This document shows, piece by piece, positions 35,111-50,436 of a stretch of DNA of 64,000 nucleotides. Origin of the DNA: Desulfosudaceae bacterium (GTDB lineage Bacteria > Desulfobacterota > Desulfobacteria > Desulfobacterales > Desulfosudaceae). Each line of letters begins with the position of its first letter. Position 1 is the stretch's first letter. Made by a program: the position numbers and the translations under genes. The notes beneath the pieces were generated by a model. The model saw only the letters and a program-made list of their open reading frames with translations, did no database searches and had not been told where the DNA came from. The DNA lies in the NCBI GenBank assembly GCA_963674745.2, contig CAXXDV010000003.1, forward strand, positions 640,001 through 704,000, read 5' to 3'.

Positions 35111-36592
35111 TTATCTTGCTGTTACTGCTTTTAGAAAGCACCCGCCGCCGCTGCCGCTGCCGCTGCTGTTTGGATTAACGGGGGCGGTATCGTCACCGCC
35201 ATTATCATCGGTATCAAACAAACCCGGTCCGGACGGATCATTAAAGATGCCGTTGGCCTCACCGTCCGCGTCACCGGGACCGCCGTCCTGGGCCATGATG
35301 GTCAATGACATGCGGTCTTCGCTGATGACCACATAATCTGAAAAATCATACCAGCCGACAGCCGGGTCGTATTTATACCAGACCGCGCCTTCGGGGATCG
35401 GTTCTGAGAAATAGAAGGTCAGTTCGACGGTGTCTCCCGGGTTTGCCATCAAGGCGCTGAAGTTGATCAGCCCCAGCGGTAGCTGGTCCGGCCGGTTGCT
35501 GGAATCGTCAATAGTTGATGGGTCGATCCACTCCAGAAGTTCAAGGCTGATCCCCGGAGGAACCACAACACCGATAAATAAATCACCGGCGGTGCCACCG
35601 GGCGTGACCCGCATGTCGTCCTGGTCACGGTCGGGAATGCCGTTGCCGTCCATGTCCAGGTCTTCGGGTATCCCATTGTCATCATCTGCATCCAGACAGT
35701 CCGGTATGCCGTTCTGATCATTGTCATCGTCTGTCACACCGCAACCGCAGGCGCCCGGATCGATTTTGTCCGGATCGTTGGGGCAAAGATCTCTGTCATC
35801 GGGTGTGCCGTCGCCATCACTGTCCAGTTTGTCAAAATTGGCTGTAACCGCTTTGTTCCTGTTCATAATGAGGGTACAATCGGTGGTGCCGGTGCAGGCA
35901 TCAGACCATCCGACAAAGGTGCTTCCTTCATCCGCAATGGCCGTCAGCGGGACAAATGCGCCGGGGGTATAATACTGCATGCAATCGTCGCCGCAATCAA
36001 TGCCCGGAAACTCGCTGACGACCGTGCCATCGCCTTCCCCGGCCTTGACCACGGTCAGCCTGTAACGTTGCGGTGGTTGCGGGCCCTCATTGGGTTCTTG
36101 TTCAGGTTGATAGACATAGGTTTGATCATAAACGACGTCGTTACCGCCATTGGGATCGTATGTCGACGAGGAAACAAACGCCTGGTTAAGCAGTATACCT
36201 TCTCCGAAGCTGTCGACAGTGACGACAAGGGTATATTGGCCGCTGCCGCCGGCCGCGATCGATCCCAGAAAGCAGGTCGGGCAGCCAGCGGGGTCTTCCG
36301 CACACCCGGTAGTTGACACAAACGTTACTTCAGGCGGCAGAATGTCGCTAACGGTCACACCATCAGCCGTATCTGGTCCATGGTTGGTGACGGTAATGGT
36401 ATAGGTCAGGGTATCGCCCAGATTGACGGGATTATTGTCACCGGATTTGATGATCGACAGATCCGCTTCCAGAGGCCCGACAGCAGCCCAGCCGGTTGAG
36501 AATAATAGCGGAACGGCAATAAAACAAACGGCTGCCAATAATGAAAAGACAGGCGACGGTTTCGTTAAAGGATTTTTTGATGATGATTTCAC
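35111..36592 (-). CDS. Secreted surface protein: DUF11 + InlB B-repeat-like + Asp-rich TSP3-like repeats + choice-of-anchor-like domain + Gly-rich Cys C-terminal tag
   Basis: ADLSIIKS...LTYTITVTNHGPDTA; LTVVKAGEGDGTV...FVGWSDAC; DSDGDGTPDDRDLCPND; WYKYD...DGGPGDADG...DPSGP; ends GGGCFLKAVTAR. Confidence 0.8.
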   Translation of the reverse strand: MKSSSKNPLTKPSPVFSLLAAVCFIAVPLLFSTGWAAVGPLEADLSIIKSGDNNPVNLGDTLTYTITVTNHGPDTADGVTVSDILPPEVTFVSTTGCAEDPAGCPTCFLGSIAAGGSGQYTLVVTVDSFGEGILLNQAFVSSSTYDPNGGNDVVYDQTYVYQPEQEPNEGPQPPQRYRLTVVKAGEGDGTVVSEFPGIDCGDDCMQYYTPGAFVPLTAIADEGSTFVGWSDACTGTTDCTLIMNRNKAVTANFDKLDSDGDGTPDDRDLCPNDPDKIDPGACGCGVTDDDNDQNGIPDCLDADDDNGIPEDLDMDGNGIPDRDQDDMRVTPGGTAGDLFIGVVVPPGISLELLEWIDPSTIDDSSNRPDQLPLGLINFSALMANPGDTVELTFYFSEPIPEGAVWYKYDPAVGWYDFSDYVVISEDRMSLTIMAQDGGPGDADGEANGIFNDPSGPGLFDTDDNGGDDTAPVNPNSSGSGSGGGCFLKAVTAR

Positions 36593-36713
36593 TTGTAACC
36601 CCCATATTCTGATAATGATTCTGAAAAGTTAATCCCGCGTATGAATAATGTTATTTCCCCGTTTCACCTGAAGAATTTTAAATAGTCTATTTTTCGGTAT
36701 GATACAAGCTAAA

Positions 36714-37343
36714 TTACATCCAGCCAAGAATATTGACGAATACAATCCACAAAACGATATCTGCCGTCAGGAGGCTGAAAAACAGGGTGGCTTTGCCTTT
36801 TAATCCCAGGTTGTCATAAACCCAGACGACCAGAAAAAAAGGCGCGGTATAGGCAAGCAAAATAAATTCAATATGGGGCCAGGACCAGTATTTATATTCC
36901 CAGACAAGAATACCGAAATAGTTCAGCGCCACCTCGACCAGGATACAGAATATCCCCATGGCAACGGGAATAAAAATCCGGTTGGGGACGCCCAGGATGG
37001 TGATGTTTTTATCCATGGACAGGAGCTTGGCAAAAATAATGCCGGCCGTGCAGAACATCAGGCTGATTTCGATATTGACGCCGATCAGGATGACAAAGGC
37101 CGAGCTTTTCGGTGTCATCCACAAACCGGCGTAATTGGTAAAATGCAGAACAAGTCCATTGATAAATTCCGGCAGAAAAACGGCCACCGAAAATATCAGG
37201 CCCAGCAGGACGTTGTCCCAGGCTTTTCTTTCGATCTCAACCGTGTAAACATATAATAAAAATGGAATATAAAGAATAATGTAGGGCTGAAAATGGTCCG
37301 GGCTTCTGAGTATGCTCAGTGTCTGCAGGGTCGCTTCGGTCAT
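36714..37343 (-). CDS. Integral membrane protein of unknown function
   Basis: About 6 TM segments with intramembrane Glu residues (EFIN, NIEI, VEV); AGGAG SD. Confidence 0.75.
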   Translation of the reverse strand: MTEATLQTLSILRSPDHFQPYIILYIPFLLYVYTVEIERKAWDNVLLGLIFSVAVFLPEFINGLVLHFTNYAGLWMTPKSSAFVILIGVNIEISLMFCTAGIIFAKLLSMDKNITILGVPNRIFIPVAMGIFCILVEVALNYFGILVWEYKYWSWPHIEFILLAYTAPFFLVVWVYDNLGLKGKATLFFSLLTADIVLWIVFVNILGWM

Positions 37344-37388
37344 GGCTGGCTCCTGTCCTTGGTGGATCTTACGCTTTTTCCCGTTTGG

Positions 37389-38186
37389 TTATTTCAGAAT
37401 CATTTCAGGGGCGCAATCGGCCCTTTGTTCTTTCATTAATTGCAGCTTTTTCTTGTATCTCGATTGAACAATATCGGTCATCACCATGACAAAGATAATA
37501 AAATAAAAGGTGGCCTTGTTCATGGGGGTGATGGCATGACCTAATAACCGCAGATGCGCCAGGTGGCCGCCTTCGGAAAGAAGCATGACGCCGACCACAA
37601 AAAGAATAAACAGGCCAAGCACTTCATACATCCGGTTTTTTTGCAGGAAAGCCGCTACACGATCAGCCAGCCATATCATCAGAATCCCGCCCATGATAAT
37701 CGCCGCGGCCATTACCCAAAACACGTGGGTCAGGGCAATGGCGCTCAATATGGAGTCAAATGAGAAGACGGCATTCATGGAAACGATCAGAAAAACGATC
37801 ATGGCCACGGATTGCTGCTGCCGTATTTCATGGACAACATCTTCCATGCTCATCATATGAAGCACTTCCCGGGTTGCCGTGTACATAATAAACACGCCGC
37901 CCAGCAGGACAACCAGGCCGTGCAGATTTAATTCACTTTCGATCACACCGGTCATGTTGATACTCATAAAAGGCTCATGGAAATAGTCGATCAGCCTGAG
38001 CAGAATGAACAGTAAAAAAATCCGTAATAAAACGGCCAGACCGATTCCCAGCCGCCTGACAAAGGCCTGTCTGTGTTCCGGTGCCCGCCTGGATTCAATG
38101 GAGATGTAAAGCAGGTTGTCAAAACCCAGAACGGCCTGGAGCAGGGTCAATAAACCCAGTGTGATGAAGTTTTCAATGGTAAACAT
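37389..38186 (-). CDS. TerC family membrane protein
   Basis: LQAVLGFDNLLYIS, NAVFSFDSILSA; likely start ATG 38186. Confidence 0.9.
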   Translation of the reverse strand: MFTIENFITLGLLTLLQAVLGFDNLLYISIESRRAPEHRQAFVRRLGIGLAVLLRIFLLFILLRLIDYFHEPFMSINMTGVIESELNLHGLVVLLGGVFIMYTATREVLHMMSMEDVVHEIRQQQSVAMIVFLIVSMNAVFSFDSILSAIALTHVFWVMAAAIIMGGILMIWLADRVAAFLQKNRMYEVLGLFILFVVGVMLLSEGGHLAHLRLLGHAITPMNKATFYFIIFVMVMTDIVQSRYKKKLQLMKEQRADCAPEMILK

Positions 38187-38259
38187 TTGCTTGTTTTTCC
38201 TCCCGCAAAATAGGCAATAAATCAAAGCGACTGAAATTGTCATTCTAGAATTTTTCGGG

Positions 38260-39057
38260 TCAGGCACCCGAGAATTTGGGTTTGCGTTTCTGAAGATAGG
38301 CTTCGACACCTTCTTTAAAATCTTCGGAAAGCAGGGTCAACACAAACTGATCGACATCCATATGCGTGGTTGATTTGTCCAGGGCGTTGGCGACGGCGTT
38401 TACGGTCTGCTTGGTCATCGCGGCCGACACAGGCGGCAGGCAAAGGACTTTATCCGCGATTGCCCGGGCTTCATCCATGGTTTTGTTGTCAGGGCAGACC
38501 CTTTGGGCAAACCCCCAGTCATAAGCGTCTTTGGCGTAAACCTTATCACCGAACAGAACAATTTCCTTGGTCCTGGGCGGGCCAACCAGATGAACCAGCC
38601 GGGGGATCGTGGCCCAGCTCATGTTCATGGCCAGCCCGATTTCCGGAACCCGCATAAAGGCCGATTCCGCCATGACACGGAAGTCGCAGGCGCAGGCCAG
38701 GGAAACACCGCCGCCCACGCAGAAGCCTTCTATGGCGCATATGGTTATCTGATCCAGTTCTTCCCACATCCGGCACATCCTGGGGCCATATGCCATTAAT
38801 TTGCGTTTTTCAGCCAGGGTGGCGGTAAGCACTTGCGCCAGAGCAGGGTCGGCAAGATCGACGCCGGCACTGAAGCAACCGCCCGCGCCGGTTAAAATGA
38901 TCGCAGACACATCGGAACGCTTTTGAAAGCTTGCGGCCACGTCACAGAGTTTGTCCAGTACGTCCACGGACATGGCATTTTTTTGCCCGGGCCGGTTGAT
39001 GGTCACAATCGCCAGGGCGCCGTCATGGGTTGTGGTAATGACATTTTCATGAGTCAT
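38260..39057 (-). CDS. Enoyl-CoA hydratase/isomerase family protein
   Basis: INRPGQKNAM, FSAGVDL, AIEGFCVGGG, ACDFR, VPEI, EDFKEGV. Confidence 0.93.
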   Translation of the reverse strand: MTHENVITTTHDGALAIVTINRPGQKNAMSVDVLDKLCDVAASFQKRSDVSAIILTGAGGCFSAGVDLADPALAQVLTATLAEKRKLMAYGPRMCRMWEELDQITICAIEGFCVGGGVSLACACDFRVMAESAFMRVPEIGLAMNMSWATIPRLVHLVGPPRTKEIVLFGDKVYAKDAYDWGFAQRVCPDNKTMDEARAIADKVLCLPPVSAAMTKQTVNAVANALDKSTTHMDVDQFVLTLLSEDFKEGVEAYLQKRKPKFSGA

Positions 39058-39094
39058 ACGAACACCTTGTTATTGATTGATTAATATTTTTGGT

Positions 39095-39143
39095 TCTTCT
39101 CCAATTTAGTGAGCACACAGGGTTCAAGGGGTCGAGGGGTCAA
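39095..39143 (+). repeat. Dispersed ~50-bp element with 8-bp G-rich units
   Basis: TCTTCTCCAATTTAGTGAGCACACAGGGTTCAAGGGGTCGAGGGGTCAA; near-identical to 59943-59999. Confidence 0.75.
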
Positions 39144-39186
39144 ACACTTTTCTGGAATCGGCCGAAGCGATATCTTCAAAGATTTC

Positions 39187-39951
39187 TCAGCCGATAATCG
39201 AATCCAGCAATGAAGTGAGTTGACCCAGGGCCGGGCTGTCGTCCGGTATCTCCATCAGCGACCGGCCGGACAGATCAAAATCCGAAATCACCCGGTCCGG
39301 CTTGATACATCCGTAACACAGCATTTTTTGATCCGTGATCAGTTGAACCAGCTTGTTATCCGCTTCGTCAACACGGTTGAAAATGACGCCGGTTTTAATC
39401 GGGGCCATTTTAGGGATATCGTTGATAATCTCGTCGATCATGACTGCTGTTCTGACACTCCGCATGGAATTGTCGCAGACAATCACCGGGTAGTGAACTG
39501 TTTCGACCACCTTCCGGTTGACCTGTTCCAGGCCGGCTTCGGCGTCAATGATGATCACGTCATACTGGGATGAAATGGCAGCGATGGTTCCCCTGAGCAG
39601 TTCATTTAACGGACAGTAGCAGCCGATGTTATCGGTCCTGCCCATTACCAGGAGACTGAAATCGGGCGCTTCGTACAAGGCTTCGAGTATCAGATAATCG
39701 ATCATGTTGAAAAGGTCGGCCTTTTCTCCGGCGGCCTTTTTTTGCGCGGCTTTGCGGATAATTTTTTCCCGTGCCTGTCCGATTGTCTTCAAGTCTAAAA
39801 CGCCCAGCGAACCTTCAAGGCCCCTGGCCGGATCGGCGTCAACAAAAAGAACCCGTTTGCCCTGACCGGAGAAAATCTTGCCCGTGAGGGCGGACAGGAT
39901 TGTTTTCCCCACCCCGCCTTTGCCGGTAAACGCCATGATCAGGGGACTCAT
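39187..39951 (-). CDS. CooC/AcsF-type nickel-insertion ATPase
   Basis: Deviant Walker A GKGGVGKT, VDADP, LLVMG....GCYC metal motif, DAEAGLEQ. Confidence 0.88.
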   Translation of the reverse strand: MSPLIMAFTGKGGVGKTILSALTGKIFSGQGKRVLFVDADPARGLEGSLGVLDLKTIGQAREKIIRKAAQKKAAGEKADLFNMIDYLILEALYEAPDFSLLVMGRTDNIGCYCPLNELLRGTIAAISSQYDVIIIDAEAGLEQVNRKVVETVHYPVIVCDNSMRSVRTAVMIDEIINDIPKMAPIKTGVIFNRVDEADNKLVQLITDQKMLCYGCIKPDRVISDFDLSGRSLMEIPDDSPALGQLTSLLDSIIG

Positions 39952-39952
39952 A

Positions 39953-40723
39953 TCATGATCTCCTTTTTTTCCTTATCGCGGTTCTTATGGTGTCACAAAT
40001 CGGTTTGTCATCGCAGGCGCTGCAATCCAGGTCCGAACAACTGATGGTGCCGTCCGCTTCGAGTCTGAGCCGGGTGTGTTCCCCCCGGATGGCCGCCGCC
40101 CGTTTATGGATATCATCAATGGCGCTGATGACCTCCGGTATTTCCGCCACAATGATCACTTTGACATCTTTTATGTCGGGAAAAGCGTCCCTGTATGCAA
40201 AGATCAGGCACTGACCCAGAGCGGCCAGGGTGAACCCTTTTTTCATCAGGTCGTGGCTGATTCTGATCCAGAGCTTTCCGGGAATACTCCGGGTCATAAA
40301 ACCCGGAATTTTATTCGAGAGGTTTTTTGCGTTGTTAAAATCCGGCGACAGCGGATCAATATCCGGGCCCGGGTTGGTGATGACGGTTACGGCTATCGAT
40401 GCCGGCCCTTTTCCCATATCAGCCAATTCCGTTCCCAGTGTATAAACGGCATCCCGGCCGATATCCGATTCGCAGGTCCACAGAACGGCACTTGACGAAA
40501 TATGTGAGGGGGATCCGATTTCAAGAGCGGTATCACTTTCCGGGACGATAAAGGCGGTTTTCTTTCCGGATTTTTTTGAAACAAAACCAAGCCGTCCGGC
40601 TTCTTTGCCGTTATCAAAGGCGTAAGTCCTGAACGCGTTTTCATTTAGCATGTTCTCGATCAGATGGATCAGCGGCAGGTGGTCGCATACCGGCTGGTCT
40701 GTCCCGTTGCCCGTGTCAGTCAT
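39953..40723 (-). CDS. Stand-alone CdhC/AcsB (acetyl-CoA synthase) middle-domain-like protein with C-terminal 4-Cys motif
   Basis: LEIGSP, G.E/D, GFM...LWIRIS...KKGFTL..LG pattern as in ACS domain 2; ends CSDLDCSACDDKPIC; lacks the full A-cluster domain. Confidence 0.7.
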   Translation of the reverse strand: MTDTGNGTDQPVCDHLPLIHLIENMLNENAFRTYAFDNGKEAGRLGFVSKKSGKKTAFIVPESDTALEIGSPSHISSSAVLWTCESDIGRDAVYTLGTELADMGKGPASIAVTVITNPGPDIDPLSPDFNNAKNLSNKIPGFMTRSIPGKLWIRISHDLMKKGFTLAALGQCLIFAYRDAFPDIKDVKVIIVAEIPEVISAIDDIHKRAAAIRGEHTRLRLEADGTISCSDLDCSACDDKPICDTIRTAIRKKRRS

Positions 40724-41535
40724 TGGCGTTGCCTTTTGGGGGAAATGAAATTACCTCCGGCAATAACAGCGGCGCCGTAGGCCGCCATAAGTTGCGGATC
40801 AATATCCGAGTGTTTGACGGTTAGATTGGCCATTTTCTTCAACCGGGCCGTAAAAGCCGGCACCTTGGCCAGACCGCCTGACAGAATAATGTCGCTGTCG
40901 GTATCCGCACTGCTGAACATGGATGTCGTTTTGGAGGCGATGGAATCAATCACGCCGGCGATGACATCGTTTTTGTTTTTGCCGGCATTGACCTGGCTGA
41001 TGACACTGCTTTCGGCAAATACGGCGCAATTGCCGGCAATCATGAATTGCTCGGTGGCCTGTTCCGCGTAAGCTGAAATTTTTTCAAACGGAATCTGGAT
41101 GGCTTCGGCGACCATTTCCAGAAACTTACCGCTTCCGGCGGCACATCTTTCATTAACATAGTCCTGCTCGGCAAAGCCGCTATCGTCAATGGTAACGACT
41201 TTAATAAAAAAACCGCCGACATCAATAATGGTTCGGGCATTATTGTCAATCGAAAAGGCCCCGCGCGCAAGGCAGACGGGCTCGCTTAACCGGTAAGTCG
41301 CCTTGTTTACCAGCCTGGCACCGTATCCGGTTGCAACGGACTTTTTTACGGACCGGTTCCGTATTTTTTTCCCCCGGGCCGTGGCCGCCAGATCAAGCGC
41401 CTCGCGAAACGCGTGCCGGTACAATCTGTCAAACCGCCGGTCCATTTCGCGGCAGGCGTATCCGAGGAGCCTGGCATCTTCAACAAGGCAGATTTTCAGG
41501 AACCGTGTTCCGACGTCTATTCCGGCCGTTATCAT
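40720..41535 (-). CDS. ASKHA ATP-dependent [4Fe-4S] activase (HgdC/BcrAD-like), divergent copy
   Basis: GIDVGT, ATGYG, IDVGG, NERCAAGSGKFLE, CAVFAES, SGGLAK. Confidence 0.88.
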   Translation of the reverse strand: MITAGIDVGTRFLKICLVEDARLLGYACREMDRRFDRLYRHAFREALDLAATARGKKIRNRSVKKSVATGYGARLVNKATYRLSEPVCLARGAFSIDNNARTIIDVGGFFIKVVTIDDSGFAEQDYVNERCAAGSGKFLEMVAEAIQIPFEKISAYAEQATEQFMIAGNCAVFAESSVISQVNAGKNKNDVIAGVIDSIASKTTSMFSSADTDSDIILSGGLAKVPAFTARLKKMANLTVKHSDIDPQLMAAYGAAVIAGGNFISPKRQRQ

Positions 41536-42323
41536 GTTAAGCCTTTCATGGCGAAAACAGCCGCCCCCAGCGCCCCGGTTATTTGGGGGTCGATGTTCAG
41601 CCGGGTAAATTTCAGGCTCAGGTGCTTTTCAAGCTGCCGCACAACCCCCTGATTTTTTGATACGCCCCCGGTCAGACAGACATTTTTTTGAATTTCAATC
41701 ACCGTGGAAAGATCTGCGACCCTTTTGGCCACAGCATCAGAAAGCCCGGCGGCGATGTGTTTTAATTTCTTTTTTTCGTAAAGGGCTTCTAAAATTTCAA
41801 GTTCCATGAATATGCTGCATTTATTGGTAATATTTAATGGTTTGCGTGATTTTAACGTCAAGGGGCCTAAATCCTCAAGTTTTACCCCGATTGTTCTGGC
41901 CAGTATCTCCAGGGAGCGACCGGTGCCGGCCGCGCATTTATCGTTCATGGCGAAGTTTTTGATCAACCCCTTTTCATCGATTGAAATCACTTTGCAATCC
42001 TGGCCGCCGATATCGATGATCGTTCGAATGCTGTTATCGGCATAAAAAGCACCCATGCCATGGCAGGATATCTCGCTTAAATTCATATCCGCAAAAGGAA
42101 TACCGGTTCTTCCATATCCGGTACTGCAGCAGCGGGTAATATTGTCAAACGTCAGGCCGCTTGAGGAGAGTACCCGCTGCATGACGCAGGTCGCGGATTC
42201 TAAAACCGTCGGCTTTACCCTGATAATATCCGTGGCCAGGATCGATTGACCGTCCATGATCACGGCTTTTGCCGTAAGTGAACCCACATCACAACCGGCA
42301 AATATCTCTGTTTTCTGAATCAT
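41532..42323 (-). CDS. ASKHA ATP-dependent [4Fe-4S] activase (HgdC/BcrAD-like)
   Basis: GCDVGSLTAK, STGYGR, EISCHG, DIGGQDCK, MNDKCAAGTG, CSIF, TGGVSKN, GALGAA. Confidence 0.92.
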   Translation of the reverse strand: MIQKTEIFAGCDVGSLTAKAVIMDGQSILATDIIRVKPTVLESATCVMQRVLSSSGLTFDNITRCCSTGYGRTGIPFADMNLSEISCHGMGAFYADNSIRTIIDIGGQDCKVISIDEKGLIKNFAMNDKCAAGTGRSLEILARTIGVKLEDLGPLTLKSRKPLNITNKCSIFMELEILEALYEKKKLKHIAAGLSDAVAKRVADLSTVIEIQKNVCLTGGVSKNQGVVRQLEKHLSLKFTRLNIDPQITGALGAAVFAMKGLT

Positions 42324-42324
42324 T

Positions 42325-42741
42325 TTATCCGATAAAATGGTTAACCGTCACGTTATCCCTGGTCAGCTGGAGAAAGCGGAAAAACAGTAGTGCCCATAAG
42401 AAATCTCCGAAAAGGGTTGAAAATGCCAGAAAGGTGGCCTGGCCGATGATAAAACACCAGGTAAATATCGCGAAAAGAATCAGTTTTGCGATGATTCCCA
42501 GCCAGATCACGACCCTGTTTTTCGTCAGGTCTGCGGCAACCGAGCAGTATCCGACACCGAAAATCACTACTGCCAGCATAAAAACCTTAAAAAACAGAAC
42601 CTGGTAAAAATTACCAGTCAGTGCCTGATCCCCCAGCAACAGCTTTGTCGCAAGAGTACCGAACGCCAGACCGAATACGCCCAATCCGATATTCCACAGC
42701 CCGCCCACAAAGAAAGCCTTCTTATAAAAATGGTAATTCAT
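42325..42741 (-). CDS. Small 4-TM membrane protein of unknown function
   Basis: Four hydrophobic segments; paralog of 33970-34356. Confidence 0.75.
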   Translation of the reverse strand: MNYHFYKKAFFVGGLWNIGLGVFGLAFGTLATKLLLGDQALTGNFYQVLFFKVFMLAVVIFGVGYCSVAADLTKNRVVIWLGIIAKLILFAIFTWCFIIGQATFLAFSTLFGDFLWALLFFRFLQLTRDNVTVNHFIG

Positions 42742-42797
42742 TTTTTTGCCTCATATTTATACGATTTTAAAAGCTTTTATTCGATATGATGGATGCC

Positions 42798-42867
42798 ATG
42801 ACAACAGGTCATTTTTTTTGCACCCGTAGAATTTTACTTGACACGGAATCTACCATTTGTCAATAAT
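42798..42867. promoter_or_regulatory. Divergent promoter region with TGAC-N5-GTCA operator
   Basis: ATGACAACAGGTCAT (42798-42812); TTGACA on + (42838-42843) and on - (42863-42858). Confidence 0.55.
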
Positions 42868-42947
42868 CAAAGCGTAGAACATTTAAGGTCGCCCCTTAAG
42901 AAATATTATGCTTTTTTATTCTTTAACGCTACGGTAGAGGTGCAGGT

Positions 42948-44132
42948 CTGTCAATCTTAGATGAAATAAAAAAAATCGCGGCAACAGATTACCATTCCCT
43001 CCTGGTGGATGAAAAAAAATCAGGCAGGAAAATTATCGGCTATTTTTGTTCTTATTTTCCGGAAGAAATCGTCCATGCGGCCGGTTTTGTGCCGTACAGG
43101 ATGAGAGCCGTCGGCAGTACCGGAACGACAAAAGGCGATATCTATTTTTCTTCGCTTAATTGCACATTTGTCAAACGGTGTTTTGATAAAGCCCTCCATG
43201 GTGACTTTGATTTTTTAGACGGGGTCGTCTTTTTGAACGGCTGTGACCATACCCGAAGAATGTATGACAACTGGCGGCATGCCGGGATTGATCCCGATTT
43301 TCGTTACATGTTTGTTGTGCCCCATAAGACCGGCAGGCTGGCGGAAAAAAGGTTTACGGCCGAGATGGAAACATTCAAGGCCGCCCTTGAAAAAGCCTTC
43401 AGCATCACCATATCTGAAGATTCGATCCGGGCCTCTATCCGTCTTTACAATCAGAAAAGATGTCTGCTGTCTGAATTGTACCGGCGACGGTATGAAAAAA
43501 AGGTCCCCATCAACGGCAGTGAAATCCTGAGTGTCATGCTTGCCATAACCGCCATACCGGTTGAACAGGCGATTGATCTCCTGGACAAGGTCCTGGCTGA
43601 AATATCCGGCAGGGATGTGGGCGCGGAAAACAAAATCAGGGTGTTTGTCAGCTCCGGGTGTATGGAAGAGGTTGACCATCTGCAGCTTATTGAAGAATGC
43701 GGTGGGATCGTGGTCGCTGATAACCTGTGTCTGGGGGCCCGTCATTTTGACGGTATGGTGGATGAAACGGCACCCGTATTTGAGGCCCTTTCCCGTCGAT
43801 ATCTTAACCACTTGTCCTGCCCGCGGATGGTCAATGATTTTGCCGGCCGGAACGCATTTCTGAAAAAGACGATTCAAGAATCAGGAGCCGAAGCTATCAT
43901 CGCCGAAAAACTGAAGTTTTGTGATATCTGGGGGGGCGAGCTGTATCTGATGCGGCAGGAAGCAGGAAAAAGCCATCTCCCCATACTCGCCCTTGAACGT
44001 GAGCTTTACGGCGGCGGCGAAGGACAGATCAGAACCAGGGTGCAGGCCTTTTTTGAACAGGTCAGAAACCGGGCGGTGGTTGATGCCGGTCTGCTGCCGA
44101 CTGCGGGCAGGGATTACCAGGCCAAACTGTGA
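42948..44132 (+). CDS. 2-hydroxyacyl-CoA dehydratase / class I benzoyl-CoA reductase subunit (HgdB/BcrC-like)
   Basis: IGYFCSYFPEEIVHAAG, LNCTF, GCDHTRR, DNLCLG, SCPR, KFCD, GQIRTRVQAF; start is CTG 42948 or GTG 43005. Confidence 0.9.
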   Translation: MSILDEIKKIAATDYHSLLVDEKKSGRKIIGYFCSYFPEEIVHAAGFVPYRMRAVGSTGTTKGDIYFSSLNCTFVKRCFDKALHGDFDFLDGVVFLNGCDHTRRMYDNWRHAGIDPDFRYMFVVPHKTGRLAEKRFTAEMETFKAALEKAFSITISEDSIRASIRLYNQKRCLLSELYRRRYEKKVPINGSEILSVMLAITAIPVEQAIDLLDKVLAEISGRDVGAENKIRVFVSSGCMEEVDHLQLIEECGGIVVADNLCLGARHFDGMVDETAPVFEALSRRYLNHLSCPRMVNDFAGRNAFLKKTIQESGAEAIIAEKLKFCDIWGGELYLMRQEAGKSHLPILALERELYGGGEGQIRTRVQAFFEQVRNRAVVDAGLLPTAGRDYQAKL

Positions 44133-44158
44133 ACGAATGCATAAAGTATGGATGAAAA

Positions 44159-45511
44159 ATGACTGCACAGAAACATTATGAGTACATTGTCATCGGTACC
44201 GGCCCCGGGGGCGGGCCGGTGGCGCTGGAACTGGCCAAGGCCGGAAAAAGTGTCCTGGTCGTTGAAAGGGGCGCCTACCACAAACGGTTTCTCGGGTCAC
44301 CGCTGGGTGCCAGGCTTTCCGAACGGTTTTTCTGTTTCAACCGTTCAAAAGAAGGGGTCGTGCTTGAACGGGGGCTGACCGTGGGCGGATCATCCATGAT
44401 TTATCAGGGCAATGTTTTTGATCCGGCCAAACATCTTCTGAATGCCATGGGGCTTGATTTTTCTCCCGAGGCGGACGAGATCAAAAAAGAGATCGGTACC
44501 AATACCCTGCCGGACAGATTTTACAACCGGTTGACCAACGGTACGGCCAGGCTTCTGGAAGCCGCGGAAAAAATGGGCTGCCCGTTCGAGGAGCAGGAAA
44601 AGTTTGTGGAGCCGGACAAATGCCGGCTGGGTTGTGACTGGTGCATGATGGGATGCCCGTATGATGCCAAGTGGTCCACCAGGCGCCTGGTAGAAGAAGG
44701 TCTTGAAAAATATGGCGATAATTATGAGTTGCTGGTAAAAAGTCCGGTCGACAGGCTGCTCATGGATACCAATAAAAAAGTGACCGGGGTGAAGCTCAAA
44801 AACGGGCAACAGATTTTTGGAGACAATGTCATTCTGGCGGCCGGCGGTATCGGCTCGCCGGGTGTTATGCTCAGGTCCGGAGACAATCGGGTCGGCAAGC
44901 GGTTTTTTATGGACCCCATGCATATTCTTTACGGCATCAATAAACATAAAGACGGCGGCCTCTGGGGAGAACAGACGTTTACCCATGCCATTGAAACGTT
45001 CGCCCAAAGCGACGGTTTCATGATCGGCAACAGCTCGGCTTTCGGTACCTATGCGGTAATGAATATCGTCAGGCTCAAGGCTGCCATGAAAACATGGTAC
45101 AAGGCGCCGTTTGTCAAACAGGGTGTCGGTCTGTTCGTAAAGCTGGCTGAAGATGACAGGGGGGAGATTTTCCCCAATGAAAGAACCAGCAAGCCCATGA
45201 CCGAGAACGATAAAAAAAGAATGAAAAAAGGGACGGATATCGCCTCCGAACTGATGATAAAGGCCGGTGTCAAGCCGGATTCCATCGCCATGCTGGAGTG
45301 GGCCGGCGGGCACCCGGGCGGTACCATCGAAATGGGCAAGCTTGTTGACAGGACATTTCGGTCGGAATATCAGAACCTTTATGTTTGTGACGCCAGTGTA
45401 TTCCCGGTTTCACCGGGTTCACCGCCAAGCCTGTCGGTTATGGCCATGTCCAGGCTATTGTCAAAGTTCCTGTTGAAAAAAGTAAAGCCCGAAGACCGGT
45501 TTATCGATTAA
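44159..45511 (+). CDS. GMC-family FAD oxidoreductase with a CxxxCxxCxxxCP Fe-S motif
   Basis: IVIGTGPGG...VVERG, VGGSS, CRLGCDWCMMGCP, ILAAGGIGSP, GHPGGT, LYVCDASVFP. Confidence 0.88.
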   Translation: MTAQKHYEYIVIGTGPGGGPVALELAKAGKSVLVVERGAYHKRFLGSPLGARLSERFFCFNRSKEGVVLERGLTVGGSSMIYQGNVFDPAKHLLNAMGLDFSPEADEIKKEIGTNTLPDRFYNRLTNGTARLLEAAEKMGCPFEEQEKFVEPDKCRLGCDWCMMGCPYDAKWSTRRLVEEGLEKYGDNYELLVKSPVDRLLMDTNKKVTGVKLKNGQQIFGDNVILAAGGIGSPGVMLRSGDNRVGKRFFMDPMHILYGINKHKDGGLWGEQTFTHAIETFAQSDGFMIGNSSAFGTYAVMNIVRLKAAMKTWYKAPFVKQGVGLFVKLAEDDRGEIFPNERTSKPMTENDKKRMKKGTDIASELMIKAGVKPDSIAMLEWAGGHPGGTIEMGKLVDRTFRSEYQNLYVCDASVFPVSPGSPPSLSVMAMSRLLSKFLLKKVKPEDRFID

Positions 45512-45530
45512 CTTAAATTGCAGGTCACCA

Positions 45531-46934
45531 ATGGCGCCAAATTTAGAAAAACTGAAACCCTATGAGTTGTTAAGGAAAAACGCGGGCGGGAATGTGCGAA
45601 AAGTTTTTTTCTCATTAAGTTCCCCGTACGTTGTAAAAGCTCTTTTATATCTTCTCAGACCGCTTTATATGAAAAAGGAAACCTGGTTCAACAGATCGTT
45701 CCGGTATTATGCGCTTTCACTGGGGGCGGGCAGCATGGCGCCTGAAGATATCAAGGCCATGCTTTTTTCTATCAGAGCAGTAGCCGCAAATTTTTTGAAA
45801 GCCATTGACGCCGCTGAAAACAATCAACCCGTTGTCTGGGTGGAGTGGATACTTCAGGGGGAAATCGGGGAGGCCTTTGACCTGACGACGATTAATCCTG
45901 AAGCGTTGAATGTTTACGGCAATTCCTTGAGTGGCGAGTATCCGCCGCTTTTGATTGAAGCCGCCGAAAAGCAGGGCACGCCGATTGAAAACTGCTCGGC
46001 CCAGAAACTGGCCATCGGCGCCTACATTTCAAAGCAGACACCGCCGCCGTCTTTAATTATCGGCGGATCCCATCCCTGCGATACCAGTGTTTCGGTTTAC
46101 CAGACACTTGAATATCTGACCGGTGCGCCTGCATTTATCCTCGACGTGCCATACTGGAAAGACGAAGGCGCTTATAAATATTTTGAAGATAATATTTGGG
46201 AACTGATCGCTTTTCTTGAAAAACATACCGGCAAACCGGCTGACTGGGATAAATTAAGAACCGTCCTGGAACGGGTCAATCAGATTAATTACTATCTGCG
46301 GGAAGTCTGTGAGATGGCGCGGGCCATTCCCTGTCCGTCTTCAATCAATACGCTTCTTTTTGCCTGGGCAACCCGTGAGATTGATGTGCGGTCGCCCCAT
46401 ATGCTTGATATGGCCAAGGCCCTTTATGAGAATTCAAAGAAGCGTTTCGATAAAGGGCAGGGCGTTATTAAAAACGAAAAAGTCCGCATCATCATGTGGT
46501 TTCCGCCCATCGCATTCTATCTTTATTTTTTTACATGGCTGGAAAAGGAGTTCGGTGCTGTTGTGGTCGCCGATTTTATCGGTCATATTTCAACGATTCA
46601 GGTAGACACCTCTTCAAAAGAATCCATGGTCGAAGGCCTGGCTAAAGCCCAGATGCACCTTGCCATGGGCCGGCAATGTCACGGTCCCATGGACTTTTTT
46701 ACCGATGAACTGAATAAAATGATAGATGACTATTCGCCGGACTGCATTTTCTTTATGGGCCACAACGGATGTAAGCACGGCTGGGCCGGTCTGAAGATTG
46801 TCCAGGACACCATTAAGCAAAGAGGGCTGCCGGCGCTTTATTTAAATATCGATATTATGGACAAACGCCATACGTCCGAGACCGAAATCAAGAAACAGAT
46901 TACAGATTTTATGGTTAGCCACGGTTGGGGATAG
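45531..46934 (+). CDS. 2-hydroxyacyl-CoA dehydratase / class I benzoyl-CoA reductase subunit (HgdA/BcrB-like)
   Basis: NCSAQK, HPCD, FILDVPY, LIAFLEKHTG, AIPCP, GHNGCKH, PALYLNIDIMD; N-terminal extension. Confidence 0.88.
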   Translation: MAPNLEKLKPYELLRKNAGGNVRKVFFSLSSPYVVKALLYLLRPLYMKKETWFNRSFRYYALSLGAGSMAPEDIKAMLFSIRAVAANFLKAIDAAENNQPVVWVEWILQGEIGEAFDLTTINPEALNVYGNSLSGEYPPLLIEAAEKQGTPIENCSAQKLAIGAYISKQTPPPSLIIGGSHPCDTSVSVYQTLEYLTGAPAFILDVPYWKDEGAYKYFEDNIWELIAFLEKHTGKPADWDKLRTVLERVNQINYYLREVCEMARAIPCPSSINTLLFAWATREIDVRSPHMLDMAKALYENSKKRFDKGQGVIKNEKVRIIMWFPPIAFYLYFFTWLEKEFGAVVVADFIGHISTIQVDTSSKESMVEGLAKAQMHLAMGRQCHGPMDFFTDELNKMIDDYSPDCIFFMGHNGCKHGWAGLKIVQDTIKQRGLPALYLNIDIMDKRHTSETEIKKQITDFMVSHGWG

Positions 46935-47146
46935 CCCGGATATATCAAGAATTGATTCGACCCCGCGCACCTGACACATTCTGCGATACGCCACTCCGCC
47001 CGCTGATATTGTAGGGGCGGCCCCCTGTGGCCGCCCTGCACAAGGGCAACCACAGGGGGTTGCCCCTACATGGTTATCCGATAAAAGGGCAACCCCATAG
47101 GGGGGGGACGTGATTCACAATCGGGCACGGCACGCCGTGCCCCTAC
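46932..47146. repeat. IS/MITE-like end plus REP cluster
   Basis: TAGCCCGGATAT... at 46932; GTAGGGGCGGCCCCCTGTGGCCGCCC (47011); GGGCAACCACAGGGGGTTGCCCCTAC (47044-47069); GATTCACAATCGGGCACGGCACGCCGTGCCCCTAC (47112-47146). Confidence 0.85.
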
Positions 47147-47227
47147 GTGAGTCTGCGGCCTGCGCCTTGCGGGTGCCGCCAGACAGCGTCCAACGCGGCC
47201 CCGTTATTTTTCCGGGTATAAAATGTC

Positions 47228-47275
47228 TTGACATTGGCATGAGAAATCCCTATTTTTTAAATGACCAGCGGTCAG
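47228..47275 (+). promoter_or_regulatory. Sigma70 promoter with downstream TGACC-N3-GGTCA operator
   Basis: TTGACA (47228) - 17 nt - TATTTT (47251); ATGACCAGCGGTCAG (47261-47275) just upstream of tetR. Confidence 0.7.
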
Positions 47276-47288
47276 TTAAGCGCAGGGG

Positions 47289-47981
47289 GTGATTGTTGAA
47301 CCTATATCAATTTCAACGGGGAAGATGAAACGAGCCAGACAATCAGACCAGAAGACGGCCCGGCGTCAGGACATTTTAACGGCTGCCTGGGATTTGTTTT
47401 TAGAGTCATCCGGAGAATTGCCGACCGTAACACGCGTGGCGCGGCGGGTCGGTCTGTCAAAGGGAACCCTTTATCTCTATTTTTCTTCCAAAGAAGAATT
47501 ATTTTTTTCTGTTTTTGAAAGCCGGGTAGAGGAATGGGTGCGGTCAATTGAAACCGTCCTGGGAGAGAGGATGGCGGATATCGGTATAATAGACTTATCC
47601 CGTGCACTGACCGGGTATGCGGCTGAAAATCCCCTGGTGATCAAACTAGGCACCATCACCAAGAGTTTTATTCAAAACAACATCGATGCCAACATTATTT
47701 ATGATTGCGATAAGCGCATCGTGACCCTTGTCGATATGGCGGCCGGGGTAATCTCGGAACGATTTTCCTTTATCACCCGCAAGCAGGCCTCGCAGATGCT
47801 GGCACGGGGTTATGCCCTGACGCTCGGGCTTTGGCAGGTACTGGATCGGCCACCGGCGGTCAGCAGCCGGTTACTGGATGAGGGAATCGATATGTTTATG
47901 CCGGAATTTGAGAAAAATATTGTTGAGACAACGGAAATATTTTTAAACGGCTATTTGCGTTACCTGAAAGAAACCGGATGA
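47289..47981 (+). CDS. TetR family transcriptional regulator
   Basis: KRARQ...RRQDIL, VARRVGLSKGTLYLYFSSKEELF; start may be ATG 47325. Confidence 0.92.
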   Translation: MIVEPISISTGKMKRARQSDQKTARRQDILTAAWDLFLESSGELPTVTRVARRVGLSKGTLYLYFSSKEELFFSVFESRVEEWVRSIETVLGERMADIGIIDLSRALTGYAAENPLVIKLGTITKSFIQNNIDANIIYDCDKRIVTLVDMAAGVISERFSFITRKQASQMLARGYALTLGLWQVLDRPPAVSSRLLDEGIDMFMPEFEKNIVETTEIFLNGYLRYLKETG

Positions 47982-48003
47982 TACATCGGGTTGGGAACCG
48001 GAT

Positions 48004-49377
48004 ATGAAAAGAATTTTCTTGTTTTTGTTGATTGTCGTAATGCCGGTCAGTGGCCGGGCATTGACGTTGCAGGAGGCGGTGTCCGTCGGGTTAAAAAAGA
48101 ACCTGGAATTGTCGGCCGCGGAAAAGCAGCAGGACGCGGCCCGGGCCGAGGCGTCCGGACAAATGCGCGATTTCTTCCCCAAACTTCTGGCGGAAGGTAA
48201 ATACATGGATTTGACGGATCAGGGAAGCATGGAAATCCCTCAAGGGGCATATAATATGGGTGTTCCCATGACGCCCATACCCGCTTATGATGTGGCGACA
48301 TACTTAAACGACAAGACCATGCATGACTATTCCTTCACCCTGGCCCAGCCGATTCTGGGGCTTTATAAAATCAACAAAGCCTGGCGTTTAAAAAAGAAAA
48401 TAGCCGCCATTGCCGGGGCCGATGTCGGGGTCTTGAAGCATAAAGTCACCATGGACGTGATCGAAGCCTTCTGTCATGTCAAGATGGTGGAAAAAAAGAT
48501 TGATCTGGCAAAAACCAATATCACGGAACTTACCGCTCACCTGGCGCGAATCCAAAGCCTCCACCGGGTGGGGCATGTGCTGGACCGGGACCTTTTCCAG
48601 GTCCAGCTGGGGCTGGACAATGCCCGGCTGGAACTGGAAATAGCCGAGCGTGAACGATTGCTGGCCATTGAAAAACTGTTCTGGGTGATGGGCGGGGAGG
48701 TTGAGCCACCGGTTTTTGACGAGCCGGTGGTAGAATTGCCCATGGATGTCGGTGTCAATGACGTTGACGCGGCCCGTTTTGTTAAAAGCGGTCTTCAAAA
48801 TCGCTGGGAAATGAAGAAAGCCGTTGAAGCGGTCAAGGCCGCCGGACTCCAGGTGGGACTGGCGGTCAGTGAATATCTGCCGGAGTTGAACGTATTTGCC
48901 CGATACACGGAGCAGGACGGCGACCATTCTTTGCCGGACAAAAACACGATTGTCGGAGTAGAGGTGACGGCCACACTTTTTGAATGGGGAAAGACCGGTA
49001 AACAGAAGACCGCGGCGGGCATGCGCCTGGACAGCGCCCGAAAGAACCTTGAAAATGCCAAAGAAATGATCCGCCTTGATGTGCTGCTGGCACTGAAGAC
49101 CTTTGAAGACAGCCGCTCCAGGCACCGGCTGGCCGATCAGAGCTTAACGCTGGCCGAAGAATCCCTGCGCATCACCCAGAAGCAGTATGAAGCGGGCCGG
49201 GCCACCATAACCGACCTTTTGAATGACCAGACGGTTTTTCACCAGGCCCGAACAGACCTTGCCCTGGTCGCGGACCAGATGATTATCGATTATGCCGCGG
49301 TGCGGACGGCAGCCGGAATGCCGCCGCTTCCCGACATGGATATCAACGAATCTCGTTATACAGGTGACACATATTAA
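48004..49377 (+). CDS. TolC-family outer membrane efflux protein
   Basis: Signal peptide; LTLQEAV..GLKKN, YLPELN, LFEWG, YEAGRAT. Confidence 0.9.
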   Translation: MKRIFLFLLIVVMPVSGRALTLQEAVSVGLKKNLELSAAEKQQDAARAEASGQMRDFFPKLLAEGKYMDLTDQGSMEIPQGAYNMGVPMTPIPAYDVATYLNDKTMHDYSFTLAQPILGLYKINKAWRLKKKIAAIAGADVGVLKHKVTMDVIEAFCHVKMVEKKIDLAKTNITELTAHLARIQSLHRVGHVLDRDLFQVQLGLDNARLELEIAERERLLAIEKLFWVMGGEVEPPVFDEPVVELPMDVGVNDVDAARFVKSGLQNRWEMKKAVEAVKAAGLQVGLAVSEYLPELNVFARYTEQDGDHSLPDKNTIVGVEVTATLFEWGKTGKQKTAAGMRLDSARKNLENAKEMIRLDVLLALKTFEDSRSRHRLADQSLTLAEESLRITQKQYEAGRATITDLLNDQTVFHQARTDLALVADQMIIDYAAVRTAAGMPPLPDMDINESRYTGDTY

Positions 49378-49388
49378 AGAGGCGCCTT

Positions 49389-50435
49389 ATGAAGAAAGTT
49401 TTTTTGTTGCTGCTCGTTTTTTCGTTGCTGTGCTACGGGTGTAAGGAAAGCGAAAAAGAAGATGCGCAGGTCCTGCCCATCCCCGTCAAGGTGCGCAAGA
49501 TCGAAACAAGTGTTCTGACAAACACCATCCGTCTGACAGGTACCATCCGTCCCCGGGAGAAAGCGGGGCTGTCATTCAAGGTGCCGGGCCGGATTGCGGA
49601 TATACTGGTCGATGAAGGCGACCGGATCGGCAAAGGCGATGTGGTGGCCCTGCTGGAAGCTAATGATTACGAGCTGAACGTCAAAATGGCGGAAGCGCAA
49701 GTTAAAGCCCTGGCCCCGGAATACCAGCGGCAGCGGTCCCTGCTCAAGGATAAAGCCATTACCCAGGCCGAGTTCGAGCAGTTTGAAGCCCAGTACAAGG
49801 TGGCCACCTATAAATTGAACCTGGCCAGAAACAACCTGAAGGACTGCCAATTAAAAGCGCCTTTCGACGGCGAGATCGCCCGGCGCCAGGCCGATTCCGG
49901 TGAACTGGCTGCGCCTGACCGGGTCATCGTTCTATTAATGGATATGAGCGGGGTGGAGGCGGAGATCGGCGTGCCCGACCTTGATATCAACCGGTTTAAA
50001 CTGGGTGAGGAAGTGGCTTTTACCATGAGCGCGTTTCCGGAAAAAAAGTTTACCGGCAAAGTCGTACTCATCGGTTCCATGCCGGATCCGGTTTCCAGAA
50101 CCTATCGGGTCCGGGTCAGCCTGCCCAATCCGGGCGGCCTGCTCAAGGCCGGCATGATCGTGACCATGAATTTTAAGATCAAAAACGGGGGGAAGAAACT
50201 GGCCGGCGCACCGCTTTCCGCCATTCTTCATTCGGTTGACGCCGGTCCGTACGTATTTGTGGTCAAAGACGGTAAGGCCGTCAAAAAGGATATTGTCCTC
50301 GGTCCCATGTTTCAGAAGCTGGTGGGAGTGGAAAGCGGTCTGGAAGATGGTGACATGCTGATCGTCGAGGGACAGCATTACGTCCGGCCCGGACAGCAAA
50401 TCAAGATTATGAACCAGACGACCCAGGCAGGTTGA
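49389..50435 (+). CDS. RND efflux membrane fusion (periplasmic adaptor) lipoprotein
   Basis: Lipobox YGC; LSFKVPGRI..ILVDEGD, LKAPFDG, SRTYRVRV, LKAGM, GLEDGD. Confidence 0.93.
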   Translation: MKKVFLLLLVFSLLCYGCKESEKEDAQVLPIPVKVRKIETSVLTNTIRLTGTIRPREKAGLSFKVPGRIADILVDEGDRIGKGDVVALLEANDYELNVKMAEAQVKALAPEYQRQRSLLKDKAITQAEFEQFEAQYKVATYKLNLARNNLKDCQLKAPFDGEIARRQADSGELAAPDRVIVLLMDMSGVEAEIGVPDLDINRFKLGEEVAFTMSAFPEKKFTGKVVLIGSMPDPVSRTYRVRVSLPNPGGLLKAGMIVTMNFKIKNGGKKLAGAPLSAILHSVDAGPYVFVVKDGKAVKKDIVLGPMFQKLVGVESGLEDGDMLIVEGQHYVRPGQQIKIMNQTTQAG

Positions 50436-50436
50436 T

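Follow-up and report, generated by a model that had tools for sequence, protein, structure and literature searches.

A Predicted Benzoyl-CoA Reductase-Type Gene Cluster of a Desulfosudaceae Bacterium Linked to a Stand-Alone Acetyl-CoA Synthase A2-Domain Protein and a CooC-Like ATPase

Introduction

Benzoyl-CoA reductases (BCRs), 2-hydroxyacyl-CoA dehydratases, and double-cubane cluster proteins (DCCPs) form a family whose chemistry is among the most reducing in biology. Class I BCRs such as BzdNOPQ and MbdONQP (PDB 8s02 and 9g87; PMC11971306) combine two HGD-D subunits with two different ASKHA activases. According to PMC11971306, BzdN binds an [8Fe-9S] double cubane via six cysteines, and BzdO holds its cluster through Cys95, Cys128, and Cys380, with Glu65 and His131 as the acid–base pair. 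The dehydratases HadBC/HadI and HgdAB/HgdC (PDB 3o3m) belong to the same superfamily and share the ATP-dependent activation by an ASKHA [4Fe-4S] protein. DCCP, which works with a DCCP reductase (PDB 6eno and 7yyl; NF040772), is a single HGD-D protein with a motif of seven cysteines, as given in a preprint (bioRxiv 10.1101/2022.07.06.499078). Here, we describe a gene cluster at positions 38,260–46,934 of a 64,000-nucleotide stretch of a Desulfosudaceae genome (assembly GCA_963674745.2, contig CAXXDV010000003.1, positions 640,001 to 704,000; this whole stretch is hereafter the window, and coordinates without a contig name refer to it). The cluster encodes a predicted enzyme of this superfamily together with a protein of 256 amino acids related to acetyl-CoA synthase (ACS), which we call mini-ACS, and a CooC/AcsF-type ATPase of 254 amino acids. 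A BCR-family enzyme and this pair travel together in dozens of other anaerobe genomes.

A full-text search of the literature outside subscription journals, as far as its texts were accessible, found no paper in which enzymes of the BCR, dehydratase, or DCCP kind are connected with CooC or with a CdhC-like protein, and the job of the pair is so far undescribed in that literature. A review on naphthalene (PMC12016498) lists the genes of tetrahydronaphthoyl-CoA reductase; the terms "GMC" and "acetyl-CoA synthase" do not occur in its accessible text, where CooC was not among the search terms. In isoprene reductase, as reported in PMC10134865, HypA and HypB are encoded beside the reductase, which is a loose parallel only.

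A Predicted ATP-Driven Enzyme Related to Class I BCRs

A sequence-only reading of the window had proposed a BCR-like architecture of two activases and two dehydratase-type subunits, within a cluster of nine genes forming two divergent runs. All nine genes were recovered in place by open reading frame (ORF), Pfam, and NCBIfam scans. The two family scans also confirmed the family calls, except that the CooC call rests on a PDB match and that a small membrane protein has no match. The rightward run encodes a small, BzdN/BcrC-like HGD-D subunit of 375 amino acids (43005–44132, + strand; Pfam HGD-D, 278.8 bits) and a large, BzdO/HadB-like subunit of 467 amino acids (45531–46934, + strand; 187.3 bits). 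The leftward run encodes activase 1, a BcrA/BzdQ-like ASKHA ATPase of 263 amino acids (41532–42323, − strand; Pfam BcrAD_BadFG, 173.9 bits), and activase 2, a divergent second ASKHA ATPase of 271 amino acids (40720–41535, − strand; 107.3 bits). The proposed architecture is thus borne out by two HGD-D and two BcrAD_BadFG matches, and it gains further backing from a BzdN-type motif of six cysteines.

Compared with PDB entries, the small subunit gives nearly equal scores with BzdN (8s02_B, 113.7 bits), HadC (110.8), DCCP (105.3), and MbdN (101.6). Its Cys15, Cys53, Cys80, Cys242, Cys272, and Cys306 align with cysteines of BzdN and DCCP in the PDB alignments and are conserved in all of the 59–60 homologs from associated loci; in HadC, by contrast, Pro and Ala take the positions of Cys15 and Cys242. 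These six residues match those of BzdN, whose ligands we took from the wording of the paper ("six cysteine thiolates," PMC11971306) and not from coordinates. Because BzdN binds its double cubane through six cysteines, the small subunit is predicted to carry an [8Fe-9S] cluster of this kind. Among the NCBIfam models, the double-cubane model NF040772 fits it best (191.3 bits, and 192.5 in a second scan), though below the cut-off of 350. Unlike DCCP, a single protein with seven cysteines, the window encodes an alpha/beta gene pair with six of the seven.

In the large subunit, which has ∼70 additional N-terminal residues, Cys155, Cys183, and Cys414 align with the BzdO cluster ligands Cys95, Cys128, and Cys380 and are conserved in 63 of 64, 64 of 64, and 55 of 63 sequences, respectively. 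It is predicted to be the catalytic subunit, these residues binding a [4Fe-4S] cluster with an open site as in class I BCRs. Activase 1 scores 232.7 bits with TIGR00241 (cut-off 125.4) and 188.2 with the BzdQ model, under its cut-off of 380.2; activase 2 scores 166.6 and 112.7 bits, respectively, and is predicted to play a BcrD/BzdP-like role. Both carry a CAAG[TS]G motif and a second cysteine motif (KCAAGTG and NKCS in activase 1, RCAAGSG and GNCA in activase 2), and this cysteine pair we take, from the HgdC structure, to provide the ligands of a bridging [4Fe-4S] cluster. Two activases are also encoded in the close orthologous loci L001, L002, L004, and L033. The 2-hydroxyacyl-CoA dehydratases, in contrast, have a single homodimeric activator gene.

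The placement of the subunits relative to the BCR, Hgd, and DCCP families is based on NCBIfam and PDB scores. The equivalog cut-offs for BzdN, BzdO, BzdQ, and BcrA–D were all missed widely, for instance those for BzdN (121.5 vs. 453.8 bits), BzdO (45.1 vs. 448.6), and BcrC (121.8 vs. 421.2), as were the dehydratase cut-offs (135.3 vs. 700 and 57.3 vs. 750), HadB and HadC included, and the PDB alignments reach only ∼114 bits with BzdN and 39 with BzdO. Across the genome, the best BzdN score is 136.8, and all 19 HGD-D matches stay below both the BzdN and the DCCP cut-off. The sequence-only reading would have been refuted by subunits falling inside an already characterized clade with the same gene set; by the curated models, none of them belongs to a characterized family. 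The window cluster also differs from class I BCRs by a gene for a GMC-fold FAD/Fe-S protein between its two subunit genes and by the mini-ACS and CooC-like helpers, neither of which is mentioned for BCR in the accessible text of PMC11971306. Because it combines two different activases with a six-cysteine small subunit, the enzyme is BCR-like rather than dehydratase-like. We consider it very probable that the core enzyme is of the BCR type, driven by ATP and acting on acyl-CoA by radical chemistry; from its sequence, it is predicted to work like a class I BCR, outside the benzoyl-CoA clade and on a substrate other than benzoyl-CoA.

Mini-ACS, a Stand-Alone Relative of the ACS A2 Domain

Mini-ACS (39953–40723, − strand; Pfam CdhC, 31.5 bits for a cut-off of 24) matches only residues ∼318–500 of bacterial ACS in sequence searches. 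A structure model built from 107 relatives (mean per-residue confidence, pLDDT, 92) consists of an N-terminal helix, the middle (A2) domain of ACS at residues 37–220, a stub of four cysteines (Cys4), and a terminal helix. Residues 37–220 superpose on the Moorella ACS A2 domain (1oao_D, residues 316–495) with a VIA-align Z score of 20.2 and an rmsd of 2.4 Å over 176 residues, compared with Z 3.8 for the next unrelated match, and W152 and R154 correspond to the WVRIS stretch of ACS. The A1 and A3 domains and the A-cluster are absent: the matches stop at residues 220–222, and the protein ends 36 residues past A2. Models of the full-length protein are missed by a wide range (NCBIfam cdhC, 35.3 vs. 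355.95 bits; PRK04456, 45.9 vs. 372).

In place of the missing domain stands the Cys4 stub, C229-x4-C234-x2-C237-x5-C243, located where the ACS of the same genome starts its cluster cysteines (…YYSCTLCQSF…). Across the 107 sequences, its cysteines are conserved either fully or to at least 90%, as are E68, G70, P72, W152, and R154; the block means of pLDDT in this stretch are 73–86. Only this stub could bind metal within mini-ACS. The protein had been read as a truncated ACS domain, to be checked by modeling and profile comparison with AcsB/CdhC. The homology and the A2 fold stand, whereas the nickel-binding A-cluster domain, A3, has no counterpart.

This structure bears directly on the proposal that mini-ACS holds an A-cluster-like Ni/Fe-S site for the carbonylation or decarbonylation of acyl-CoA. 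The homology with ACS and the adjoining gene of a CooC-type ATPase speak for it. However, the superposition covers A2 only, without any A3 match in the 36 residues that follow, and four cysteines are too few for both the cubane and the binuclear nickel site of the ACS ligand set. Because the nickel-binding domain is missing and A2 is metal-free in ACS, we regard such a site as very improbable.

An exhaustive protein search recovered 303 mini-ACS cluster representatives at 50% identity (137 of them at E ≤ 1e-10), nearly all of ∼250 amino acids; a word-index search had given six relatives only. In the Atlas, these clusters bear the name "CO-methylating acetyl-CoA synthase family protein" or else "hypothetical protein." A dedicated search, in itself weak evidence, found no longer fused forms at E ≤ 1e-10. 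Given 303 representatives of so uniform a length, we conclude from the sequences that mini-ACS is a stand-alone protein family and not a fragment.

The full ACS of this genome sits on a different contig, and the earlier statement that the window lacks carbon monoxide dehydrogenase (CODH) and full-length ACS holds for the 53 window ORFs scanned. The full-length ACS gene (locus L011, G000:C1:2387743-2391207) is frameshifted near locus position 2125: one frame ends at 2250 after ...SPERTGL, and the A-cluster domain (CGAYNWMDCK...TTCGCCECIA...) lies in another frame, at 2126–2731. The frameshift is either a sequencing error or the mark of a pseudogene; a corrinoid-protein-like gene comes next.

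Linkage with HGD-D and Activase Genes

A pattern scan of species-representative genomes yielded ten loci, from Thermodesulfobacteriota, Spirochaetes, Bacteriovoracaceae, and Polyangiaceae metagenome-assembled genomes. An activase gene adjoins mini-ACS in all ten, and HGD-D genes are present in eight, CooC in eight, and GMC in six. We also searched 401 genomes of the window's phylum with a mini-ACS profile. Matches were obtained in 272, most of them on true ACS (frames of ∼740 amino acids), and stand-alone mini-ACS (at least 123 bits, frames of 219–552 amino acids) was found at 49 places in 34 genomes from 16 families. Outside the window's own genome, there are 47 such places; 41 have HGD-D or activase genes within ∼8 kb and 25 a CooC gene, and four of the six exceptions to the HGD-D/activase linkage are on contigs shorter than 9 kb.

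The non-redundant set comprises 55 mini-ACS loci. Within 8 kb, an activase gene is found in 46 of them, an HGD-D gene in 45, and either of the two in 49. In most of the loci of the two surveys above, mini-ACS comes directly after the activase gene. A CooC-like gene is present in 32 loci, within 300 nt of mini-ACS in 27. As a rough yardstick, which is an estimate and not a computed control, 19 HGD-D matches in the 5.55 Mb of the window's genome mean that a random 17-kb stretch would hold one in only a few per cent of cases. A survey of this kind had been suggested for separating a conserved arrangement from a chance neighborhood; since the arrangement recurs in 10 of 10 and 41 of 47 surveyed loci, it is not due to chance. 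Unlike ACS (AcsB/CdhC) with AcsF/CooC, which it resembles by the A2 fold, the WVRIS residues, and the CxC-bearing ATPase partner, the mini-ACS/CooC-like pair has BCR-like radical enzymes as genomic partners, and not CODH or a corrinoid protein.

The CooC-Like ATPase and Its Coupling to Mini-ACS

The CooC-like ATPase (39187–39951, − strand) has CooC1 as its best PDB match (3kje_A, E 5e-11), its residues 6–234 aligning with residues 3–233, nearly the full length. As had been noticed, the CxC motif is intact: GCYC (C111-Y-C113) aligns with the CYC of CooC1, and a deviant Walker A motif, GKGGVGKT, is present. C[YF]C and GKGGxGK[TS] are kept in all 32 unique orthologs. The CxC of CooC1 is a Ni/Zn site.

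We ran a CooC profile over a 401-genome sample of the phylum, of equal size and with the same genome handles. Of the CooC-like places, the 35 best (at least 291.9 bits, a line set post hoc from the list once seen, among related genomes that are not independent) are spread over 32 genomes, every one of which belongs to the 34 that carry mini-ACS. In the two mini-ACS genomes that remain, there are a CooC-like match of 275 bits adjoining mini-ACS (G288) and one of 256 bits in an assembly that is 85% complete (G150). Genomes without mini-ACS start to appear in the list under ∼280 bits. CooC/AcsF genes beside true ACS, where checked (G001 and G243), score ∼215 bits.

These figures bear on the possibility that the linkage is incidental, the CooC-like gene serving the canonical CODH/ACS and mini-ACS being a decaying ACS fragment. 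The genome does hold a full ACS locus and other CooC paralogs. However, the score of ∼215 bits beside true ACS, where checked, sets those chaperones apart from the clade at 291.9 bits or more, and a decaying fragment is at odds with 303 representatives of uniform length and invariant residues, for which 49 of 55 loci show the linkage with HGD-D or activase genes. We consider this explanation the least probable of those weighed here.

We also modeled a complex of two ATPase copies and one mini-ACS, each given as an alignment. It obtained a score of 0.61 (0.61, 0.51, and 0.61 in the individual runs), the best of three controls reaching 0.00. The mark that the model passes is passed by 116 of 157 solved complexes and by 2 of 215 mismatched pairs, figures that are to be taken as approximate for a model with our own alignments and three chains. 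The runs share at least 73% of their contacts, and the pLDDT of the partner is at least 78. The modeled interface is formed by residues 53–59, 70–75, 127–137, and 145–152 of mini-ACS and 79–97 and 122–129 of the ATPase, and includes the conserved residues G70, P72, R145-P148, and W152 of the former and D85, Y86, L92, and E94 of the latter. A PDB sequence search listed CooC entries under the name of the accessory protein only, and we know of no solved CooC–ACS complex. The functional coupling of the two proteins, proposed at the outset, is thus supported by adjacency in 27 of 55 loci, by the phyletic match across 401 genomes, and by the complex model. A joint action of mini-ACS and its CooC-like ATPase, either on the core enzyme or in concert with it, is likely.

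The two helpers are not always paired gene by gene. Several genomes (e.g., G117, G269, and G211) have two or three mini-ACS places, and the 35 best CooC-like places include only one from each of them, a pattern consistent with a chaperone that acts in trans. In the window's genome, a second mini-ACS (C1:1303816-1312126, 23% identity) lies amid two HGD-D pairs and three activases without CooC, and a second CooC (C3:812896-817781) lies beside HGD-D and GMC genes without mini-ACS. These cases are consistent with an ATPase that is shared between enzyme units, each unit having its own mini-ACS.

Such solitary helpers beside HGD-D genes are what would be expected if the pair were a maturation machine of the reductase, assembling or modifying the [8Fe-9S] cluster or inserting a heterometal in a cluster of the HGD-D subunits, with mini-ACS as the adaptor that brings the ATPase to its target, a part that the A2 domain may play for AcsF on ACS. 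The lower number of CooC-like than of mini-ACS genes per genome and the presence of the six double-cubane cysteines in every associated small subunit point the same way. Many HGD-D pairs of the same genome, however, lack both helpers, and we hold this explanation to be improbable.

A second alternative makes mini-ACS a dedicated ferredoxin-like carrier, whose Cys4 stub would bind a [4Fe-4S] cluster and supply the activases with electrons, for which the GMC dehydrogenase may be the source, the CooC-like ATPase being an Fe-S loader in the style of Mrp/NBP35. Four invariant cysteines in a short C-terminal stretch, at the place where the [4Fe-4S] cysteines of ACS begin, and the position of mini-ACS directly after the activase gene are consistent with this role, and class I BCR operons include a ferredoxin gene of their own. 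On the other side, C-x4-C-x2-C-x5-C is not a standard ferredoxin spacing, the stretch is modeled with a pLDDT of 73–86 only, and the CxC that the ATPase shares with CooC1 is a Ni/Zn site in the latter. We give this alternative a small though appreciable chance.

Proposed Mechanism

On balance, we favor a BCR-type acyl-CoA enzyme with a CooC-loaded mini-ACS accessory, a reading that we find somewhat better than even. By this scheme, the heterodimer of activases 1 and 2 would take up an electron, the potential of which would be strongly lowered by ATP hydrolysis. The electron would first enter the small subunit's [8Fe-9S] double cubane and then pass to the open-site [4Fe-4S] cluster of the large subunit, where an acyl-CoA would be reduced or dehydrated via a ketyl-type radical, as in class I BCRs. 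The GMC-fold FAD/Fe-S protein may oxidize a hydroxyl or C–H group of the same pathway or supply electrons to it. Mini-ACS would serve this enzyme class as a dedicated accessory, with as a rule one copy for each HGD-D/activase unit. The CooC-type ATPase would bind the conserved A2 surface of mini-ACS and, by analogy with CooC/AcsF, may use its CxC motif and ATP to load a metal on the Cys4 stub or, through mini-ACS, on the reductase. The precedent of the family would make this metal nickel, and iron or an Fe-S cluster is also possible; that it is nickel we consider doubtful. That the pair installs nickel or another heterometal, either on mini-ACS or in a cluster of the BCR-type enzyme, seems to us rather unlikely.

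Several observations weigh against the favored reading. The A2 domain of ACS carries no metal and the domain with the nickel ligands is absent here, so that nickel loading of mini-ACS would have no direct precedent. The contacts of the complex model include neither the CxC of the ATPase nor the Cys4 of mini-ACS, a CooC-like gene is missing within 8 kb in 23 of the 55 mini-ACS loci, and the phyletic match depends on the post hoc line among related genomes mentioned above. No CooT, His-rich protein, or other recognizable nickel-chaperone gene was found in the cluster. BzdNO was made in Escherichia coli, according to a methods heading of PMC11971306, and a double cubane can therefore form without helpers of the mini-ACS/CooC type. 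For the core enzyme, no subunit reaches a curated NCBIfam cut-off for BCR, dehydratase, or DCCP, and Ser186 of the large subunit stands at the place of the catalytic His131 of BzdO; Glu65 falls beyond the aligned stretch. Finally, the closest paralogous cluster of the same genome (C1:1335333-1340871; two activases, an HGD-D pair, and GMC) carries neither mini-ACS nor CooC. In that cluster, the small subunit is encoded in two pieces (1336931–1337149 and 1337154–1338014).

The search for His-rich ORFs in a credible frame was likewise negative in 57 loci, and the sole CooT gene of the genome, at C1:1261583, is far from all these clusters. At one locus only, a LarA-like gene (lactate racemase N-terminal domain, of a nickel-pincer enzyme family; L007:13026-14345, − strand) lies beside a mini-ACS/HGD-D cluster without CooC.

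GMC-Like Protein and Pathway Context

The gene between the two subunit genes encodes a GMC-fold FAD dehydrogenase of 450 amino acids (44159–45511, + strand; Pfam GMC_oxred_N, 48.3 bits, and GMC_oxred_C, 40.9 bits). The protein keeps the FAD-binding GxGxxG motif, and H385-P386-G387 is invariant in 12 of 12 sequences, as are the four cysteines of an inserted loop, C155-x3-C159-x2-C162-x3-C166-P. Its model (pLDDT 81) has the catalytic subunits of fructose dehydrogenase (9jqa_A, E 1.6e-24) and of the Burkholderia cepacia FAD-dependent glucose dehydrogenase (FAD-GDH; 6a2u_B and 8grj_B) as best Foldseek matches. In the B. cepacia enzyme, a surface [3Fe-4S] cluster on Cys212, Cys218, and Cys222 relays electrons from FAD, as stated in PMC6719666. 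As the best fold matches are FAD/Fe-S dehydrogenases with such a cluster, the GMC-like protein probably serves as a substrate dehydrogenase whose electrons leave through an Fe-S wire. It shares the fold and the Cys-rich loop, which holds Fe-S in the known enzymes, with the FAD-GDH alpha subunit and Gluconobacter fructose dehydrogenase (PDB 6a2u and 7w2j), at ∼13–15% identity. Unlike them, whose partners are a multiheme cytochrome c and a small hitchhiker subunit, it has four cysteines ending in CxxCxxxCP, which would allow a [4Fe-4S] cluster, and no gene for a cytochrome c or hitchhiker subunit beside it: its flanking genes are the two HGD-D genes, and Pfam scans of the cluster and its flanks (35111–53523) found no cytochrome c. 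The sequence-only reading had counted both this protein and a crotonase as members of the system. The GMC gene is present as described, but a GMC homolog occurs in only 14 of 55 loci, making it an occasional partner of the module; for the crotonase, with a homolog within 8 kb in only four of 55 loci, membership is not upheld.

In the close orthologous loci L002, L004, and L033 (small subunit 59% identical), CooC is followed by genes for a thiolase-like protein, an AMP-forming CoA ligase, a small membrane protein, and a nitroreductase. In the window, it is the crotonase that stands there. Because the close orthologs add these genes, a pathway that starts from a carboxylic acid activated to its CoA ester fits.

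Organization of the Locus and Neighboring Genes

The first gene of the leftward run encodes a small hydrophobic membrane protein of 138 amino acids (42325–42741, − strand) without Pfam or NCBIfam match; homologs with 41–46% identity are present in L002, L004, and L033. It lies 1 nt from the activase 1 gene; the genes for activases 1 and 2 overlap by 4 nt, as do those for activase 2 and mini-ACS, and mini-ACS and the CooC-like gene are 1 nt apart. The gene for the crotonase (enoyl-CoA hydratase/isomerase, 265 amino acids; 38260–39057, − strand; Pfam ECH_1, 149.6 bits) follows after a gap of 129 nt and is probably co-transcribed with this run in the window. The two runs are separated by a divergent intergenic region (42742–43004) whose best promoter-like site, at 42838–42867 (+ strand), has 11 of 12 consensus matches; it is a consensus match only, the region having 14 such sites compared with 12.9 in shuffles, which is no excess. 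That the two runs form one enzyme system appears more probable than that they do not.

Downstream of the rightward run lie a TetR gene and an RND efflux system. On the other side, a TerC-family membrane protein is encoded at 37389–38309 (− strand); its longest ORF shares 50 nt with the end of the crotonase gene, and its start codon is uncertain. At ∼5 kb from the cluster, a protein that joins a flavodoxin-like domain with a 4Fe-4S ferredoxin domain (33004–33837, + strand) may serve as a low-potential carrier of electrons. The 26700–32250 region (− strand) encodes a glycyl radical enzyme of 987 amino acids (PFL-like and Gly_radical domains, with ∼190 extra N-terminal residues), directly downstream of a long acyl-CoA dehydrogenase (29656–31464) and a second crotonase (31489–32250); no activating enzyme for it was found among the window ORFs scanned. 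Farther away, a fused N6-methylase/specificity protein of 970 amino acids, an HSDR_N-domain protein, and a Schlafen/AlbA_2 ATPase with a helix-turn-helix domain (5830–11060, − strand) resemble a restriction or defense island, and a bacterial serpin (405 bits to Pfam Serpin) is encoded at 880–2085 (+ strand).

Conclusions

An ACS-derived helper pair so tightly and widely linked to the BCR/dehydratase/double-cubane family, with 303 mini-ACS clusters and occurrence in 16 families of one phylum sample, indicates that the assembly or operation of these enzymes includes a step not described so far, in which nickel may be involved. With 256 and 254 residues, mini-ACS and its CooC-like partner also make a small soluble system for studying the docking of CooC/AcsF-type chaperones on an ACS domain. 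If the pair did install nickel or another heterometal, these enzymes would be a new class of nickel-dependent, ATP-driven radical reductases, and the way in which AcsF-type chaperones dock on the A2 domain of ACS would be revealed as well.

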